DNA of 8,639 bases from a virus (lineage: Duplodnaviria; Heunggongvirae; Uroviricota; Caudoviricetes), in IMG/VR virus record IMGVR_UViG_2534681604_000013; one strand, given 5' to 3'. The translations under genes and the position numbers were made by a program. A model generated the notes under the pieces. That model worked only from the letters and a program-made list of their open reading frames with translations, searched no databases and was not told where the DNA came from. Position 1 is the stretch's first letter. Each line of letters starts with the position of its first letter. Positions 105 through 8,082 of this stretch are shown here, piece by piece.

Positions 105-204
105 CGCCCGCTTTGCGGGGCGGTTTCAATGCAGTTGCACTGACACGCTCAGGCCGCGCCGGGAATGGCGCGGTCTGCAGAAAATGAGGCAGGAAAACGC
201 ATGC

Positions 205-238
205 AAAGCCATGCACCTTATCGATGCATGGCTTTTTT
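205..238. terminator. Intrinsic terminator-like hairpin downstream of psu
   Basis: Perfect 11-bp inverted repeat AAAGCCATGCA (205-215) / TGCATGGCTTT (225-235) with a 9-nt loop. On the plus strand it runs straight into a T-run (233-238); on the minus strand it is followed by GCGTTTTCC. Could terminate the late operon or a transcript entering from the left. Confidence 0.6.
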
Positions 239-389
239 CAGTAAAACGGGCGGATTTTCGGGGAATTTTACACAGACTGATGTGATGCCAGTTGCGCACT
301 TTTACGCGAAAAAATCATGTTCTGCGCAGGGGTGAATTTTTCACGGCTGTCATCCACCGAAGCCGCGTCAGGCCTGAATCCGATGGTCG

Positions 390-839
390 TTAAAATGTCA
401 CTATCCTGTGCGGAATAATTAATTTTTCCCCCTTCGCAAGCCAGGACAGAAGGGCTTCACGCAGGGCATCTGTGGCACGCTGTATGGCACAGTTTCGGGC
501 AATGGCCGTCAGCTCACTGTATCCCATCAGCTCCGGTGCCAGTGCCGCCGCCAGTGCTGTGCCGTGCTGCTGCATAAAATCATTCAGCCGGTCGCGGATG
601 CTGATGTGCTGAACGGCTTCATGCGAACGAATATAACGACCGGCGGCCTGATTCACCTGCCATTTTCTGACTTCGATAATATTGCGTAATTCGTCCAGGC
701 GACTGACGTTTCTGCCTTCCCCGGACAGAAGCCGCAGATATTCCTGTTCGGCCGCAGCCAGCTCATTTTTGCGTTGCAGCCATGCTGCTTTGTTATTCTG
801 ACAGGTGTCAAAGGCCTGCTGTAAGGCTGTGCTCTCCAT
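390..839 (-). CDS. psu: Psu (polarity suppression / capsid decoration protein), C-terminally truncated to 149 aa by a frameshift
   Basis: 149-aa ORF, last gene of the sid-delta-psu late operon. A -1 frame continues the reading to a stop at 268-270, giving 190 aa, the length I recall for P4 Psu. The frame change maps to the homopolymer T5C5 at 423-432. Confidence 0.85.
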   Translation of the reverse strand: MESTALQQAFDTCQNNKAAWLQRKNELAAAEQEYLRLLSGEGRNVSRLDELRNIIEVRKWQVNQAAGRYIRSHEAVQHISIRDRLNDFMQQHGTALAAALAPELMGYSELTAIARNCAIQRATDALREALLSWLAKGEKLIIPHRIVTF

Positions 840-912
840 CGTTATCTCTTTCTCATCATGCTGAAGAATAAAAATACGGTGTGCGGCGACGGCCGGGGTT
901 AACCGGCAGCCC

Positions 913-1413
913 TCATTCCAGACGCAGCGAATATGATTGTGTTTTTAACCGTACTGGCGGCAGTTCCTGTTTTTCATGCAGGCGTTCTGCCAGTTCGTCC
1001 GGCGTGACCGGGCGGACAATGAAGCGGTTGATGGTCTGAAGCGTTTTAAACACCAGACCACAGCCCGGATCCGTGCACACATAAAAACGCTCGGTGACTT
1101 CCTGAGACAGACGCCGCGATGTTCTTGACAGTGCAAGGCCTTTACATCTCCGACAACAATATCCGGTAACAAGCATTCTTTTCGGGCGTTTCATACTGCC
1201 GGAGGCTGACGTCAGTGAATCGCGGTATCTCTGTTTGCCTGAAATGTATTCCATTCCTGAATCTTTACAGTCAGAGAAAAAGCTTTCACTCGCTTCAAAT
1301 GTCGCAGAGCAATAAATATTCCGGCACTGTGCAATCATTATCTTGGTGCCATCGTCCATGAAATGTGCGCGACGGGTGTGAGCAACATGTCCACACGACG
1401 GGCAGTAAATCAT
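913..1413 (-). CDS. delta: Delta: late-gene transcriptional activator, tandem Ogr-like zinc-finger protein (166 aa)
   Basis: Two Ogr-like halves, each with paired Cys motifs: CPSCGH...CRNIYC in the first half and CCRRC...CTDPGC in the second. 166 aa matches P4 delta. Start ATG overlaps the sid stop as ATGA (1410-1413). Confidence 0.9.
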   Translation of the reverse strand: MIYCPSCGHVAHTRRAHFMDDGTKIMIAQCRNIYCSATFEASESFFSDCKDSGMEYISGKQRYRDSLTSASGSMKRPKRMLVTGYCCRRCKGLALSRTSRRLSQEVTERFYVCTDPGCGLVFKTLQTINRFIVRPVTPDELAERLHEKQELPPVRLKTQSYSLRLE

Positions 1414-2144
1414 GACAGCAGTCCTCTGGCCTTAAGCTCTGCACCCTGCTGGTCTATTTTGTCCTGCCACACCTTGCGCTGTGCCGGTGTGCCTGCCACC
1501 TCATAATCCATGTGCGGGAGTGTTGCCGCTGACAGTCCGGTCAGCCGGAGAACCGGCTCGCCGGTGAGGCTGATTTGCATCTGTTTAATTTTCTGTTCCA
1601 GCGATGATTTCACCTGCTGCATGACAGCCTTTTCCGGTGCGACGTAGCCCTGATGCCCGGTGGTGTTGGCGAGCGGATTTTCCTGTACCAGGATACTCAG
1701 ATGCATTGCCCGGACAAGCGCCTCACAGGTTTCATTCAGGGCGTGTTCCAGCTCATGCTCTGCATACAGACTCAGAAGGTGATGATGTGCCTTCCGGTAG
1801 GCGGTGGCCGTGCTGTCACACGCCCCTTTCAGGCGTTCGCGTTCAAAATTCAGCACCACGGCCAGATTGTCATATTCCTGTACCAGCTCCCGGCGTGCCA
1901 CGCGCTCAATGTGGCGCTGTTTCAGCTCGTCGCTCAGGACACCACCGGCTGCACGAAAGGCCGTGCGCCAGTCGTCAGCGTCGTTTCCGTCGGCCTGCGT
2001 CAGCGCATTTTTTTCCTGCTCTGCCCGTTCAATGGCCGTGACGGTCTCATCCATCAGGCGGGCATTCTCAAGGTGGGCGGCTCTGGCCTTTTCCAGTTGT
2101 GCCAGTGCGGGTTGCAGATATTCAGGGATGGTGTGGTCAGACAT
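1410..2144 (-). CDS. sid: Sid: external scaffold / capsid size-determination protein (244 aa from the internal Met)
   Basis: The six-frame ORF runs 1410..2210 (266 aa), but the Met at 2144 (MSDHTIPEY...) has a GAGGAG Shine-Dalgarno 7 nt upstream and gives 244 aa, the P4 Sid length as I recall it. Starting at 2210 would place the TGT-N12-ACA dyads inside the gene. Confidence 0.85.
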   Translation of the reverse strand: MSDHTIPEYLQPALAQLEKARAAHLENARLMDETVTAIERAEQEKNALTQADGNDADDWRTAFRAAGGVLSDELKQRHIERVARRELVQEYDNLAVVLNFERERLKGACDSTATAYRKAHHHLLSLYAEHELEHALNETCEALVRAMHLSILVQENPLANTTGHQGYVAPEKAVMQQVKSSLEQKIKQMQISLTGEPVLRLTGLSAATLPHMDYEVAGTPAQRKVWQDKIDQQGAELKARGLLS

Positions 2145-2178
2145 TTTCCGGCTCCTCGTCACTTCAGGTTGAGAAAAT

Positions 2179-2234
2179 TGTGACGTACACCGGACAACAA
2201 CACGACGCATTGCAGATGTGCCAGCCCTGACACA
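2179..2234 (-). promoter_or_regulatory. Psid-like late promoter region with two TGT-N12-ACA dyads (Delta/Ogr-type activator sites)
   Basis: TGT(2217-2219)-N12-ACA(2232-2234) is centred about 81 bp upstream of the sid ATG, consistent with a -55 activator site if the transcript starts near 2170. A second perfect dyad, TGT(2179-2181)-N12-ACA(2194-2196), lies 38 bp closer to the gene. Confidence 0.6.
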
Positions 2235-2290
2235 GGAGACTCATCCTCAGACCGGCAAGCCAGGAAAAGGTCGCAGGAAAAACCGGCTTA

Positions 2291-2418
2291 CTGTTTGTTT
2301 TTTTATATTTTACTGTTCACCTCTGTTCACCTTAAGAAAAAAGATAATTAATACAGTAAGTTAAAGGGTGAACAATCGCAGTAATGACTGTTCACCGTCT
2401 GTTCACCACTGTTCACCC
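2291..2418. repeat. ori-like iteron cluster: six copies of the P4 type I iteron TGTTCACC in AT-rich context
   Basis: TGTTCACC at 2314-2321, 2324-2331, 2389-2396, 2400-2407, 2410-2417 and its complement GGTGAACA at 2367-2374, flanked by T-rich tracts. The same octamer recurs in the crr about 4.8 kb away, matching the P4 ori/crr arrangement. Confidence 0.8.
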
Positions 2419-2520
2419 GCTCATGGACTTTTTGTGCTGTTTACTACTGTTTGTTTTTATTAATTCGCCGGGAATGAATAAGAAGAAACGATTTGTATTT
2501 CACTATAAAAATTACGAATT

Positions 2521-2550
2521 GCTTTAAGTGGCTTTAAATGACTTTAAGTG
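2521..2550. repeat. Three tandem 10-bp units (CTTTAAGTGG / CTTTAAATGA / CTTTAAGTGG) upstream of the PLL-like promoter
   Basis: Directly visible head-to-tail repeats. Function unknown; possibly a DNA-binding-protein site. Confidence 0.5.
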
Positions 2551-2575
2551 GGAATGAACAAAAAACACACAGTCA

Positions 2576-2650
2576 TTGTAAGGCTGCCGGAACAAATCCC
2601 CCCTGTTGCGTCTGCCAAAAATATTCACAAAATAAAGCGCTACCCGAAGC
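2576..2650 (+). promoter_or_regulatory. PLL-like late promoter for vis, with one TGT-N12-ACA activator dyad
   Basis: TGT(2576-2578)-N12-ACA(2591-2593). A centre at -55 would put the transcript start near 2640, about 57 nt upstream of the vis ATG. A weak TTGCGT -35-like hexamer lies at 2615-2620. Confidence 0.5.
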
Positions 2651-2696
2651 CGGACGGACTTATCCGGTGCTGTATGGACATTAACGAGGTAGCCCG

Positions 2697-2963
2697 ATGC
2701 AAGCTGTTTTTTCTTCCCCGTCTCCCGCCCCTGTGACGCCACTGATGCCGCTGCCGGACATCACGCAGGAGCGTTTTTTACGTCTGCCGGAAGTGATGCA
2801 CCTGTGCGGCCTGTCACGCTCGACCATCTACGAACTCATCCGTAAGGGGGAATTTCCGCCGCAGGTGAGTCTTGGCGGTAAAAATGTGGCCTGGCTGCAC
2901 TCTGAAGTCACCGCATGGATGGCCGGGCGCATCGCCGGACGCAAACGGGGGTACGACGCATGA
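2697..2963 (+). CDS. vis: Vis / AlpA-family helix-turn-helix regulator-excisionase (88 aa)
   Basis: 88 aa, matching P4 orf88 (vis). Core [28 protein letters not shown] is a typical AlpA/Vis HTH segment. GAGG Shine-Dalgarno at 2685-2688. Confidence 0.85.
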
Positions 2964-3550
2964 TGATGCCTGTTCTGCAAAAACACCCTTTTTCTGGCTT
3001 GCCTTTTTCCGGCATTTGCGGATATAGTTTTTCCGCTGTCGCAAAATCGGCAGCCGGGCGTGAGAACCCGAGTATGTTATCGGCGACATATGACGCGCCA
3101 TGCGTCTTTTTTTGTGTCGCAATCAACGCCACAGAGCACCAGATTATGGTGTGGCGTGTGGTTTGCCGTGCAGGTATGATCCTGTTCGCAATCGCATGTT
3201 ATACCTCTGAGTCAATGGTAGCTCAGGCGGGGCAGCCTCCGGGCTGGCCGGTTTCCGATAACGCCGGTATTCTCACCCCCGTCTGGGCTATCGCCATCGA
3301 GCGTGAGAACTCCGGCGATAGCGTCATTTACGCTGTTATCGGAGGTTGCCTTATGGCTATGACCCTTACCCCCTCACACCCTGAATTTGTCTTTGTGTTT
3401 GCGGCTGTCCGTCGCGCAGACCGTCATCCCCGTATCTGCATGCTTCGCACCGTCGCCGGTGATGAACGCAGCGCCCGCCGTTCCCTTGTCCGTGACTATG
3501 TGCTCTCCCTTGCTGCCCGTCTGCCGGTGGTGGAGGTGTCCCGTGCGTAA
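2960..3550 (+). CDS. Hypothetical ORF (196 aa) spanning the predicted immunity region; may not be a real gene
   Basis: Open frame whose ATG overlaps the vis stop (ATGA at 2960-2963), with decent codon structure. But it starts upstream of the predicted PLE, overlaps the putative RNA-immunity elements, and the product is Cys/Trp-rich with no motif I recognise. Confidence 0.25.
2999..3028 (+). promoter_or_regulatory. Sigma70-like promoter TTGCCT-N18-TATAGT, candidate PLE (early/immunity promoter)
   Basis: -35 TTGCCT at 2999-3004 and -10 TATAGT at 3023-3028. It lies about 390 bp downstream of the predicted PLL start, matching the roughly 400-nt PLL-to-PLE spacing described for P4. Confidence 0.5.
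3050..3320 (+). ncRNA. Candidate RNA-immunity leader (P4 CI-RNA / seqA-seqB-seqC-like arrangement)
   Basis: GCGTGAGAAC occurs twice in direct orientation (3058-3067 and 3301-3310). Its partial complement TTCTCAC (3270-3276) lies between them, just downstream of the predicted PLE start. Boundaries are not determinable by eye. Confidence 0.3.
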
Positions 3551-3830
3551 TAAAAAAGCCCCTCAGACCGTCTCAGCGCGTCATGACGCCCGTGAACACC
3601 TCAGCATTGAGGCTTACCATAAGCTCAACCGCGCCAGCGCCGTATCCCAGTTTGTTGGGGGTGATTTGATTCACCGTGAACTCTCCGGCCTGCATCAGCT
3701 CTATATTCCGCATATTTTCAGCTACCTGAATGAAGATATTGATTTTGTGCTGAATGAGCTGAAAGCCAAAGGCCTGTGCCGCGATTTTCTCGCCCAGCAG
3801 AAAGACCGGGGAGACAGGACGCATGTTTGA
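3543..3830 (+). CDS. epsilon: Epsilon-like protein (95 aa with GTG start); P4 epsilon derepresses the helper prophage
   Basis: GTG at 3543 preceded by GGAGG (3532-3536). The reading frame contains no internal Met, so the upstream ATG at 3387 is unlikely to be the start. 95 aa, placed immediately upstream of orf151 as in P4. Stop overlaps the orf151 ATG. Confidence 0.6.
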
Positions 3831-4278
3831 TTTTCCCCAGCCCGGTGAGATTTACCGTTCTGCCGGTTTTCCCGATGTGGCCGTGGTCGGCATTCTGGAA
3901 GACGGTATTCCGTGGGAAATGCCGTACCGCTGCCCGGACATTGTCTGGAATCCGTACCGCCGTAAATTCAGTATCCTTGTGCGTATCCTCGCTGACGGGC
4001 GCACCACAGACATCCCGCTGGGGCGTTTTCTGCGGGAATTTACCTGTGACCGTCCTGACCTGTTCAGACGCAGCCCCGTAAACCGGCATGCGGTACTGAA
4101 AGAAATGGCCGGAGACCCGGAATTACAGAAATGGCGGGAGAAATATCTGGATATTTACCCGCAGGACCCTGTTCCGGTCAGCCGGGCGGCACCGGTGGCG
4201 CGGGAATGGCGGGAAATTCCCCGCACGGAGCCTGACCCGGAAATCACCCCGGATAACAGTTACCGCAATTATCTGTAA
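3823..4278 (+). CDS. P4 orf151-like protein (151 aa), function unknown
   Basis: Size and position match P4 orf151. ATG overlaps the upstream stop (ATGTTTGA). GGAGACAGG ribosome-binding region upstream. Confidence 0.8.
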   Translation: MFDFPQPGEIYRSAGFPDVAVVGILEDGIPWEMPYRCPDIVWNPYRRKFSILVRILADGRTTDIPLGRFLREFTCDRPDLFRRSPVNRHAVLKEMAGDPELQKWREKYLDIYPQDPVPVSRAAPVAREWREIPRTEPDPEITPDNSYRNYL

Positions 4279-4413
4279 TTAAAAAACGACACCCGAAAAA
4301 TTAAATGTGCGTATTCGCGCAGGGATACGCACGTCTTCAGGAGACGCAGATATGCCTTATCAGTTAATGCAACCGGCACAGAATGCAGTCATCTGTCACA
4401 GGGAGGAAAGCAA

Positions 4414-4734
4414 ATGAAAACACCCTTACCGCCCGTCTTACGCGCTGCCCTTTACCGTCGCGCTGTCGCCTGTGCCTGGCTGACCGTGTGCGAACGTCAG
4501 CACCGCTACCCGCATCTCACCCTTGAGTCACTGGAGGCGGCCATCGCCGCTGAGCTGGAGGGCTTTTATCTGCGCCAGCACGGTGAGGAAAAAGGGCGTC
4601 AGATAGCCTGTGCCCTGCTGGAAGATTTAATGGAATCCGGCCCCCTGAAGGCCGCACCGTCGCTGTCCTTTCTCGGGCTGGTTGTGATGGATGAACTCTG
4701 TGCCCGTCACATAAAAGCGCCGGTACTGCACTGA
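4414..4734 (+). CDS. P4 orf106-like protein (106 aa), function unknown
   Basis: Strong Shine-Dalgarno (AGGGAGGAAAG) before the ATG. Size and position match P4 orf106, directly upstream of alpha. Confidence 0.8.
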
Positions 4735-4748
4735 AGGAGAACAACACC

Positions 4749-7082
4749 ATGAAAATGAACGTAACCGCCACCGTCAGCCATGCGCTCGGCCACTGGACGC
4801 GTATTCTCCCGGCGCTGGGGATTCAGGTGCTGAAGAACCGTCATCAGCCCTGTCCGGTCTGTGGCGGGAGTGACCGCTTCCGTTTTGATGACAGGGAGGG
4901 GCGCGGCACCTGGTACTGCAATCAGTGTGGTGCCGGTGACGGCCTGAAACTGGTTGAAAAGGTGTTTGGTGTTTCCCCGTCCGACGCGGCCGCAAAGGTG
5001 GCTGCCGTGACCGGCAGCCTGCCACCGGCTGACCCGGCAGTGACGACCGCCGCCGTTGCTGAAACAGACGCTGCCCGGAAGAACGCCGCCGCACTGGCAC
5101 AAACCCTGATGGCGAAAACCCGTCCCGGAACCGGTAACGCCTACCTGACCCGCAAGGGCTTTCCCGGCCGGGAATGCCGGATGCTGACCGGCACACACAG
5201 AGCCGGTGGCGTGAGCTGGCGCGCCGGTGACCTTGTGGTGCCACTGTATGACGACAGCGGCGAACTGGTTAACCTTCAGTTAATCAGTGCTGACGGCCGT
5301 AAGCGCACCCTGAAAGGCGGACAGGTCAGGGGCACCTGTCACACCCTTGAAGGACAGAATCAGGCCGGAAAACGTCTGTGGATAGCGGAGGGATACGCGA
5401 CCGCACTTACCGTGCATCACCTGACCGGTGAAACGGTAATGGTGGCGCTTTCTTCCGTGAACCTCCTTTCTCTGGCCAGCCTTGCCCGGCAGAAGCATCC
5501 GGCCTGTCAGATTGTCCTTGCCGCAGACCGTGACCTCAGCGGTGACGGCCAGAAAAAAGCCGCCGCAGCCGCAGATGCGTGTGAAGGTGTTGTTGCCCTG
5601 CCGCCGGTCTTCGGTGACTGGAATGATGCCTTCACGCAGTACGGCGGGGAAGCCACCCGTAAGGCCATTTATGATGCCATCCGGCCACCGGCTGAAAGCC
5701 CGTTCGACACCATGAGCGAAGCGGAGTTCTCCGCCATGAGTACCAGCGAAAAGGCCATGCGTATCTATGAGCATTACGGCGAGGCGCTCGCGGTTGATGC
5801 CAACGGCCAGCTTCTGTCCCGTTATGAAAATGGTGTCTGGAAGGTGCTGCCACCACAGGACTTTGCCCGGGATGTGGCCGGGCTGTTTCAGCGTCTGCGC
5901 GCGCCGTTCTCCTCCGGGAAGGTGGCCTCCGTGGTGGACACCCTGAAGCTGATTATTCCGCAGCAGGAAGCCCCCTCCCGCCGCCTGATTGGCTTTCGTA
6001 ACGGCGTGCTCGACACGCAGAACGGCACGTTCCACCCGCACAGTCCGTTACACTGGATGCGCACCCTGTGCGATGTGGATTTCACCCCGCCGGTGGACGG
6101 TGAAACGCTGGAGACCCACGCCCCCGCGTTCTGGCGCTGGCTTGACCGTGCCGCCGGTGGCCGTGCGGAAAAACGCGACGTGATTCTGGCCGCACTGTTT
6201 ATGGTGCTGGCAAACCGCTACGACTGGCAGCTCTTTCTGGAGGTGACCGGTCCCGGCGGCAGCGGCAAAAGTATCATGGCCGAAATAGCCACCCTGCTGG
6301 CCGGGGAGGATAACGCCACGTCGGCCACCATTGAGACGCTGGAATCCCCGCGTGAACGTGCCGCGTTAACTGGCTTCTCACTGATACGCCTGCCGGACCA
6401 GGAAAAATGGAGCGGCGACGGAGCCGGACTCAAGGCCATCACCGGCGGCGATGCAGTGTCCGTTGACCCGAAATACCGGGATGCGTACTCCACGCATATC
6501 CCGGCGGTGATTCTGGCCGTGAACAATAACCCGATGCGCTTCACCGACCGCAGCGGCGGCGTGTCACGCCGGCGGGTGATTATTCACTTCCCGGAACAGA
6601 TAGCCCCGCAGGAGCGCGACCCGCAGCTTAAGGACAAAATCACCCGCGAGCTGGCGGTCATCGTGCGTCACCTGATGCAGAAATTCAGCGACCCGATGCT
6701 CGCCCGGTCACTGCTTCAGTCCCAGCAGAACTCAGACGAGGCGCTGAACATCAAACGGGATGCCGACCCGACGTTTGATTTTATCGGCTATCTGGAAACC
6801 CTGCCGCAGACCAGCGGCATGTATATGGGGAACGCCAGTATCATCCCGCGGAATTACCGTAAATACCTCTATCACGCCTATCTGGCCTACATGGAGGCAA
6901 ACGGCTACCGGAATGTACTCAGTCTGAAAATGTTCGGGCTGGGGCTGCCGGTGATGCTGAAGGAATACGGACTGAATTACGAGAAGCGCCATACCAAACA
7001 GGGGATACAGACCAACCTGACGCTGAAAGAGGAAAGCTACGGCGACTGGCTGCCAAAATGTGACGACCCTGCAACAACCTGA
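4749..7082 (+). CDS. alpha: Alpha: bifunctional DNA primase-helicase with C-terminal origin-binding domain (777 aa)
   Basis: N-terminal zinc motif CPVCGG...CNQCG, a Toprim-like acidic segment (AEGYATALT ... AADRD), and Walker A GPGGSGKS near residue 500. 777 aa equals the P4 alpha length. Strong AAGGAGA ribosome-binding site. Confidence 0.95.
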   Translation: MKMNVTATVSHALGHWTRILPALGIQVLKNRHQPCPVCGGSDRFRFDDREGRGTWYCNQCGAGDGLKLVEKVFGVSPSDAAAKVAAVTGSLPPADPAVTTAAVAETDAARKNAAALAQTLMAKTRPGTGNAYLTRKGFPGRECRMLTGTHRAGGVSWRAGDLVVPLYDDSGELVNLQLISADGRKRTLKGGQVRGTCHTLEGQNQAGKRLWIAEGYATALTVHHLTGETVMVALSSVNLLSLASLARQKHPACQIVLAADRDLSGDGQKKAAAAADACEGVVALPPVFGDWNDAFTQYGGEATRKAIYDAIRPPAESPFDTMSEAEFSAMSTSEKAMRIYEHYGEALAVDANGQLLSRYENGVWKVLPPQDFARDVAGLFQRLRAPFSSGKVASVVDTLKLIIPQQEAPSRRLIGFRNGVLDTQNGTFHPHSPLHWMRTLCDVDFTPPVDGETLETHAPAFWRWLDRAAGGRAEKRDVILAALFMVLANRYDWQLFLEVTGPGGSGKSIMAEIATLLAGEDNATSATIETLESPRERAALTGFSLIRLPDQEKWSGDGAGLKAITGGDAVSVDPKYRDAYSTHIPAVILAVNNNPMRFTDRSGGVSRRRVIIHFPEQIAPQERDPQLKDKITRELAVIVRHLMQKFSDPMLARSLLQSQQNSDEALNIKRDADPTFDFIGYLETLPQTSGMYMGNASIIPRNYRKYLYHAYLAYMEANGYRNVLSLKMFGLGLPVMLKEYGLNYEKRHTKQGIQTNLTLKEESYGDWLPKCDDPATT

Positions 7083-7098
7083 CCCTCATGACTCATCT

Positions 7099-7123
7099 GA
7101 CCGGCATCTGCCGGTCTTTTTTT
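7099..7123 (+). terminator. Rho-independent terminator after alpha
   Basis: Stem GACCGG (7099-7104) / CCGGTC (7111-7116) followed by T7 (7117-7123), 17 nt past the alpha stop. Confidence 0.8.
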
Positions 7124-7136
7124 ATCCCTGAATCCC

Positions 7137-7438
7137 CCGAAGGTGAACAATCCACTGTTCACCCTTCACCGTATGTTCACCCGTTATCACACTGAAATTA
7201 AAAGAGAAAAACGAAAGGTGAACAGTGTGAACAATCAAATCAAAAAAAACTTTTTTCTCCCTGTGTGATTTCAGTGCGGAGGATTAATCACCGGTATGAG
7301 TCACACCGGCAGAATGCCGGAGGTGAAGAATCGAATGTTCACCCTTCACCCACTATTCACCACCTATCATACTGAAATAAAAGGAGAAAAAAGAAAGGTG
7401 AACAGTGTGAACAGTTCTTTCGAAAAAAAATTTTTTTC
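7137..7438. repeat. crr (cis replication region): two ~122-bp direct repeats with a 180-bp period, each carrying TGTTCACC/GGTGAACA iterons and an A8-T6/7 tract
   Basis: Repeat 1 about 7137-7258 and repeat 2 about 7317-7438 align with roughly 85-90% identity. Iterons include GGTGAACA at 7142-7149 and 7217-7224 and TGTTCACC at 7155-7162 and 7173-7180. Matches the P4 crr description of two 120-bp repeats separated by about 60 bp. Confidence 0.85.
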
Positions 7439-7575: not shown

Positions 7576-7595
7576 TTCAAACTCCGCCAGCCCCA
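7576..7595 (+). other. Possible attachment-site remnant resembling the 3' end of tmRNA (ssrA)
   Basis: TTCAAACTCCGCCAGCCCCA resembles the tmRNA 3' end GGGTTCAACTCCCGCCAGCTCCACCA as I recall it (about 18 of 23 positions, with indels). It lies 136 bp past crr, where the int-distal junction of a P4-type prophage is expected. Weak evidence. Confidence 0.3.
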
Positions 7596-7639
7596 AAATT
7601 CTCCATCGGTGATTACCAGAGTCATCCGATGAAGTCCTG

Positions 7640-7675
7640 AAAGCCCGCATGGCGCAAGCCCTGCGGGCTTTTTTG
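7640..7675 (+). terminator. Rho-independent terminator
   Basis: Stem GCCCGCA (7643-7649) / TGCGGGC (7662-7668) followed by T6 (7669-7674). Preceded by a second hairpin, CATCGG (7604-7609) / CCGATG (7626-7631). Could be the trailer of the host gene targeted by the prophage. Confidence 0.65.
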
Positions 7676-8082
7676 TGCCTTCAATTTGTCTCGCAAAATC
7701 TCAAGCAAACTAATTTATTCTGAACTTTTTAAGCCCATTGTCAGTCCCAACGAAAAGAACCATCGTTTTCATTGGGTCTAAAAGCATGGAGACGACTCAT
7801 GGCAATGACGCTCCTCTGGAACATCAGAAAAAACAGCGAGAAACTCCCATGAGGCCAATACCAACACTTTCTGTTAGTTGCCGAGCGTAGGTGGAATGTA
7901 AAGAAAGACAGAGCCATAGAAGTGTGTGCTGACGATATTTCGCACTCATAAAATAAATCAAATGGATACGCGAAAGCGTAGCCTTTTTCTTGGGCTGTGG
8001 CGGCAAAATGGCGACAGCGAATTTGAGTAGTGACAATAAAGAACCATGTAATGCGGATTGCGACTGATGACAAATGCAAATT

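Follow-up and report, generated by a model that had tools for sequence, protein, structure and literature searches.

Does the DNA between vis and epsilon in a P4-like satellite encode regulatory RNAs, a protein, or both at once? The question is raised by positions 2960-3550 of the window (the whole stretch of 8,639 nucleotides analysed here, IMG/VR record IMGVR_UViG_2534681604_000013), where an uninterrupted frame of 196 codons covers a predicted promoter and short complementary repeats. The initial annotation proposed RNA-based immunity with a seqA/seqB/seqC layout for this interval, and regarded the frame either as an artefact or as a protein gene standing where P4 has RNA regulators and small kil and eta peptides. 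This choice proved to be a false one: the same ORF is present in P4, where it has 199 codons, so that eta is not a small peptide and the RNAs and the ORF coexist. The genes concerned are as follows.

2697-2963, + strand: vis (P4 ORF88, AlpA-type regulator/excisionase); Pfam Phage_AlpA, 74 bits; aligns to P4 ORF88.
2960-3550, + strand: eta ORF, 196 codons, from translation and comparison with P4; extends over promoter, leader, CI RNA and seqC, with kil as its last part.
3353-3550, + strand: kil, 65 codons in the eta frame; Icd-like, NCBIfam NF033153, 76 bits.
3543-3830, + strand: epsilon, helper derepression protein; Pfam Derepression, 170 bits; aligns to P4 epsilon.

The frame is coupled to the vis stop as described in the initial annotation, the ATG and TGA overlapping as ATGA at 2960-2963, and in P4 the start of eta is likewise ATGATGATG, across the vis stop. 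As in P4 eta, the start lies ahead of the PLE promoter and the stop is that of kil. Its product matches Pfam Phage_ASH (PF10554) over residues 22-143 (76.6 bits against a cut-off of 26) and an NCBIfam Icd-like model over residues 143-190. The Icd-like kil forms the in-frame C-terminal 65 codons and has its own ribosome site, with GGAGG at 3341-3345 seven bases ahead of the ATG at 3353. The GTG start of epsilon overlaps the eta/kil stop; being the first downstream gene, epsilon falls under immunity control.

Comparison with P4 gave 97.6% identity across 105-7436 (aligned with P4 11624-4291), and the P4-matching part holds psu, delta, sid, vis, the immunity region, epsilon, orf151, orf106, alpha and crr in that order, the region of interest thus lying between vis and epsilon/alpha as it does in a P4-like satellite. 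The alignment to the P4 PLE-kil-cI region suggested in the initial annotation showed 94.7% identity over 2600-3900. Altogether 184 differences from P4 were found, 58 of them inside 3001-3400. The three sites seqA, seqB and seqC (termed a1, a' and a2 below) did not differ from P4 at any base, and the PLE promoter, the t1 hairpin and kil were the same or nearly the same. The 601 bases of the immunity region had a 100% match in the RefSeq genome of E. coli MSI001, and similar DNA was present in 2,674 of 5,426 complete E. coli genomes. We therefore interpret 2960-3550, with high confidence, as the immunity region of an E. coli satellite prophage of the P4 type. The system is already known, contains nothing new in kind, and is a member of the P4 immunity family in every testable feature.

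Several observations concern the rest of the window. Positions 79-104 correspond to P4 1-26, where the circular form has its cos junction, and no P4 similarity was seen in 1-78 or from 7437 onward, past the crr repeat. On the - strand, psu (390-839) has a one-base deletion near 429 relative to P4 and encodes 149 rather than 190 residues, reflecting either true inactivation or a sequencing error. A smaller second cluster of 12 differences from P4 in 100 bases lies at 7001-7100, the end of alpha. At 7618-7674 a strong hairpin is followed by six T; this segment was considered as IsrM and rejected, with only the terminator end matched (31.6 bits against a gathering score of 376). Positions 7576-7757 are 85.5% identical to a Klebsiella phage, and a DinI-like ORF (Pfam, 68 bits) runs from 8397 until interrupted by the window end. 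Neither a tRNA nor the P4 attP core turned up when the window was searched for marks of the prophage end. In the MSI001 locus (L004, 2037-4625), an IS66 element lies between sid and vis and delta is a short ogr-like gene, which indicates that the window comes from a different, more P4-like element.

The published account of P4 provides the frame in which the remaining features were read. One source (PMC10111431, citing Forti et al. 1999) states that P4 eta holds a constitutive promoter internally, that full-length Eta is made from the upstream late promoter only, its translation being coupled to that of the alpA homologue, that Eta translation blocks termination, and that Kil is a truncated Eta translated upon read-through. 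A second source describes CI RNA as a processing product of a primary transcript that is not translated; it pairs with the flanking seqA and seqC, leading to termination (PMC4825925). The window fits this arrangement of eta, kil, CI and seqA point by point, and the RNA-related features were located as follows.

2999-3028, + strand: predicted PLE promoter, inside eta; -35 TTGCCT at 2999-3004, -10 TATAGT at 3023-3028.
3035-3112, + strand: leader RNA with seqA and t1; Rfam isrK RF01394, 68.3 bits against a gathering score of 50.
3092-3113, + strand: intrinsic terminator from a terminator scan; stem-loop 3092-3106, then seven T.
3211-3298, + strand: CI RNA gene, the immunity factor (Rfam bounds; helix 3217-3292); Rfam C4 RF01695, 76.2 bits against a gathering score of 45.
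3287-3295 with 3314-3322, + strand: alternative hairpin; pairing of 99.5% across 42 relatives, both sides being altered in three pairs.

These features were followed through relatives using a protein-guided scan of one genome per species; this gave 53 loci with 48-97% protein identity, spread over many Enterobacterales genera. Both isrK and C4 matches were found inside the homologous ORF in all 40 loci scanned, and these 40 loci were aligned with the window and P4 (n = 42). The promoter recognized in the initial annotation was indeed present, with an 18-nt spacer and 9 of 12 consensus matches, and was the sole promoter-like site in 2200-3900 by consensus scan. Its sequence is identical to that of P4, its -10 is the 'consensus -10 sequence' annotated in the P4 record X02534, and the hexamers were kept in relatives while the spacer varied. 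Consensus, P4 identity and X02534 together place PLE just upstream of seqA.

Downstream of the promoter, the leader was predicted to form a hairpin at 3035-3054 and a second one at 3055-3070 with a1 in its loop. The fold of the leader alone was unremarkable (z = -1.7, with 12 of 200 shuffles folding equally well); its helices were paired in 98-100% of cases across the alignment and contained compensatory changes. The related model c4-a1b1 (RF03163) scored 46.4 bits at 3022-3074 (E = 2e-9), 0.3 below its gathering score of 46.7, and a near-identical relative (L005) reached 50.8. The hairpin at 3092-3113 was the sole intrinsic-terminator-like site on the + strand and equals the 3' hairpin of the isrK model; its basal pair is swapped from G-C to C-G in 11 relatives. 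We infer that it corresponds to P4 t1, a name that, like t4 and timm, is reportedly that of Briani et al. 2000.

The CI RNA, whose P4 version is a member of the C4 family, had a predicted folding energy of -47.2 kcal/mol (z = -5.6); in this fold a closing stem of 16 bp carries two hairpins, the first of 5 bp and the second with a loop of 10-12 nt. When the leader and CI helices were examined together in the 42 sequences, 99.7% of cells were paired and eight pairs were altered on both sides; these pairing and covariation values were reached by 0 of 500 shuffles, and slid controls paired at 33-45%. Rfam, fold and covariation thus agree on a structured CI RNA gene inside the left-operon leader. 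The alternative hairpin at 3287-3322 is built in part from the 3' arm of the CI closing stem, with a2/seqC in the loop. In the unprocessed transcript this hairpin would be a competitor of the CI fold, and we guess that it could be the P4 terminator t4.

The CI RNA and its flanks contain six sites that form two modules, a and b.

3058-3067, + strand: a1, seqA core GCGTGAGAAC; complementary to a' in CI RNA.
3076-3083, + strand: b1, GTTATCGG; complementary to the CI hairpin-2 loop; TTCACAGG in P4.
3254-3262, + strand: b', TCCGATAAC, the CI hairpin-2 loop; pairs with b1 and b2; TCCTGTGAA in P4.
3270-3285, + strand: a', or seqB (TTCTCAC plus CCCCGTCTG); pairs with a1 and a2.
3301-3310, + strand: a2, seqC core GCGTGAGAAC; the CI complementarity spans 3298-3323.
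3335-3343, + strand: b2, GTTATCGGA; overlaps the kil Shine-Dalgarno GGAGG at 3341-3345.

Both copies of GCGTGAGAAC reported in the initial annotation were exact and had no further copies in the window, and the TTCTCAC at 3270-3276 was found to belong to a longer complementarity than had been noticed. It lies in a', immediately 3' of CI hairpin 2. Pairing between the two repeats and the area 3265-3285, which had been put forward as a check, was borne out by complementarities of 16 nt (3051-3066 with 3270-3285, 88%) and 26 nt (3298-3323 with 3256-3281, 77%). The complementarity described earlier amounted to module a and was correct; module b, which sets this element apart from P4, had been missed.

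Taken by itself, the GCGTGAGAAC pair is not beyond chance: at least two matches at one mismatch or fewer occurred in 23 of 200 shuffles, which is what could be said for treating the pair and TTCTCAC as chance short repeats with no pairing role. Its significance comes from the P4 identity, the Rfam matches and the three-way covariation in relatives. There a1, a' and a2 change together, GCGTAGGAAC occurring with TTCCTAC, ATTGGCGT with ACGCCAA, ATTTGCAG with CTGCAAA and GCGTGGAAAC with TTTCCAC, and every variable position remained paired in 42 of 42 sequences. This covariation already refutes the chance reading, to which we assign a negligible probability. Pairs were counted in register; counting at free offsets was dropped after it did not separate cognate from non-cognate combinations, since 9-mers with G-U pairs reach six pairs by chance. 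On the in-register counts, the variable core positions of a1:a', a2:a' and b1:b' were paired in all 42 sequences, including all seven variable positions of a1, and b2:b' had a single unpaired cell in one sequence, although such counts overstate the number of independent events because the relatives share phylogeny. Two to four pair types were seen at each variable core position. Three-way covariation of both modules therefore marks target sites on both sides of the CI RNA on one transcript, in agreement with the seqA/seqB/seqC layout and RNA-based immunity proposed initially, to which the P4 identity and the Rfam matches to CI RNA and leader also point.

The 42 elements contained 5 a-types and 13 b-types in 20 combinations. 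For the window, the predicted duplex energy of b1 was -15.0 kcal/mol with the cognate loop and -4.3 with the P4 loop, and that of b2 was -15.4 and -7.7 kcal/mol, respectively; the window b loop gave predicted values of -4.6 and -7.8 kcal/mol with P4 b1 and b2, the reverse comparison being alike. In IMG/VR, 11 contigs contained the window-type CI sequence and 6 the P4 type; each of the 17 kept its cognate b1 and b2, apart from one b2 with a single mismatch. With the a module of P4 and a b module changed in concert at b1, b' and b2, the element could define its own immunity group. The overlap of b2 with the kil Shine-Dalgarno GGAGG further suggests that pairing there should block kil translation.

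We then considered whether the eta frame is real. From the promoter to the kil ATG, the eta frame was free of stops in 40 of 42 elements, whereas the remaining frames contained 113 and 219. The spacer separating t1 from CI evolves fast and was present in 41 distinct versions; within it, the eta frame had 0 stops and the other frames 28 and 14, and the spacer length classes were separated by multiples of three. Seven loci (L014, L015, L019, L022, L049, L050 and L053) lacked one base in a' and two just after CI, so that about 10 codons are read in another frame before the eta frame is restored; two further loci (L048 and L052) lose the frame, and their t1 run has six T rather than seven. Selection acted very differently along the ORF. 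For kil, dN/dS was 0.24, compared with 1.34 and 1.75 in the shifted frames, with change at third positions in clear excess. For eta codons 1-131, dN/dS was 0.87, compared with 0.94 and 0.85 in the shifted frames, and change was spread evenly across codon positions.

These results bear on the artefact option of the initial annotation, in which the 196-codon frame would be a chance, untranslated opening over RNA genes and kil (3353-3550) the sole gene. Such a reading would account for the missing amino-acid constraint in codons 1-131, where dN/dS equals that of the controls and no third-position excess is seen, and for the shifted reading of the CI 3' half in the seven relatives. It does not account for the near-complete absence of stops in the eta frame among relatives when the other frames contain many, for the spacer lengths, for a -1 shift always restored by -2, or for the conserved ATGA overlap with the upstream gene, and it conflicts with the published genetics of P4 eta (PMC10111431). 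We regard it as very unlikely, and conclude from the pattern across relatives that the eta frame is kept open by selection.

If the frame is maintained, its N-terminal two thirds might be thought to encode a folded 'Ash' domain with a function of its own, such as that of a regulator. The Phage_ASH match points this way, as do the P4 RefSeq label of 'transcriptional repressor' for the in-frame legacy ORF137 and the placement of 'ash family protein' by PGAP over C4-like DNA on plasmids. In contrast, the substitution pattern in this part is that of the out-of-frame controls, conservation follows RNA helices and pairing boxes rather than codons, the compensated frameshift swaps about 10 residues in seven relatives, and the repressor label is older than the discovery of RNA-based P4 immunity (PMC4825925). 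An independent domain is thus unlikely here, although less so than a chance frame. Instead, we concluded that the first two thirds of eta probably have a sequence dictated by RNA and promoter needs and not by protein; in codons 1-131 translation seems to matter rather than its product. An open frame free of amino-acid constraint is consistent with a prediction of the published model of anti-termination by translation. A separate protein repressor, the legacy P4 'cI gene product' of 137 residues (ORF137), was also considered and rejected, being simply an in-frame part of eta. The Phage_ASH match (window 3023-3388, Eta 22-143) overlies the leader and the CI gene, and the family may mostly reflect RNA conservation.

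A broader interpretation, which we advance tentatively and hold at somewhat below even chances, is that immunity in the P4 family uses a reshuffled two-part a/b address code, so that the window, with the P4 a module and a different b module, could be heteroimmune or partly cross-immune with P4, and that eta codons 1-131 are open only to carry ribosomes, the Pfam 'Ash' family being largely a translated RNA gene.

The proposed mechanism combines our results with the P4 literature. In a lysogen, constitutive transcription from PLE (2999-3028) would yield the leader transcript, and processing of this leader would release a stable CI RNA (about 3215-3296). Its a' (3270-3285) would pair with a1/seqA (3058-3067) and a2/seqC (3301-3310) on later PLE transcripts, and its hairpin-2 loop b' (3254-3262) with b1 (3076-3083) and b2 (3335-3343). 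Upstream, pairing may favour termination at t1 (3092-3113); downstream, it would hide the kil ribosome site GGAGG (3341-3345) and leave kil untranslated, whereupon transcription would end ahead of epsilon and alpha. Once PLL, the regulated promoter further upstream, is active, ribosomes arriving from vis would re-initiate at the overlapping ATGA and translate eta (2960-3550) across the leader, CI and seqC sequences, and this translation may keep the transcript from termination. The present analysis provides the P4 identity, the RNA families and structure, the covariation of two modules, the geometry of kil ribosome-site occlusion, the upkeep of the frame and the confinement of selection to kil. 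Promoter activity, CI processing, the termination sites, Kil toxicity and PLL read-through with anti-termination by translation are carried over from the P4 literature and would apply here by analogy.

For annotation, the labels 'transcriptional repressor', 'ash family protein' and 'Icd-like protein' on the whole ORF are misleading, as the region is an RNA regulator under a translated-through frame and behaves like a protein gene in its last 65 codons only. The a and b boxes offer a simple sorting of P4-like satellites into predicted immunity groups, and the catalogue of modules may be a small addition to one large survey of P4-like satellites, in which the immunity RNA was not discussed. The bearing on mechanism is small, a textbook system having been met again in another E. 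coli prophage.

Among known systems, P4 itself is the closest. The order of PLE, seqA, cI/CI RNA/seqB and seqC with nested eta and kil, the position between vis and epsilon, the PLE promoter, the t1 hairpin, the CI structure, the eta coupling and kil are all shared. The window differs from P4 in that the b module is swapped at three sites (GTTATCGG / CCGATAAC, compared with TTCACAGG / CCTGTGAA in P4) and in that an in-frame 9-bp deletion in the spacer gives 196 codons rather than 199. The immI operon of P1/P7 (c4 antisense RNA, icd and ant) shares with the window the Rfam family C4 RF01695, and the a/b target naming of RF03163 applies to both systems. In P1/P7 the regulatory RNA is cut out of the transcript under its control, as CI RNA would be here, and in both systems an Icd-like gene has its ribosome site overlapped by the downstream target. 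Control falls on epsilon and the alpha primase in the window and on an antirepressor in P1/P7, and in the window, unlike P1/P7, a long vis-coupled ORF covers the whole region. P1/P7 heteroimmunity was reportedly traced by Citron and Schuster in 1990 to small b'/b2 changes. A third relative is IsrK of Salmonella Gifsy-1, whose family is matched by the window leader (3035-3112) at 68 bits. IsrK is a small RNA and a messenger that controls an antiterminator-like protein, whereas the window leader is the target of CI RNA; P4 SeqA RNA has been described as a structural homologue of IsrK, and a processed RNA has been noted downstream of IsrK (PMC4825925).
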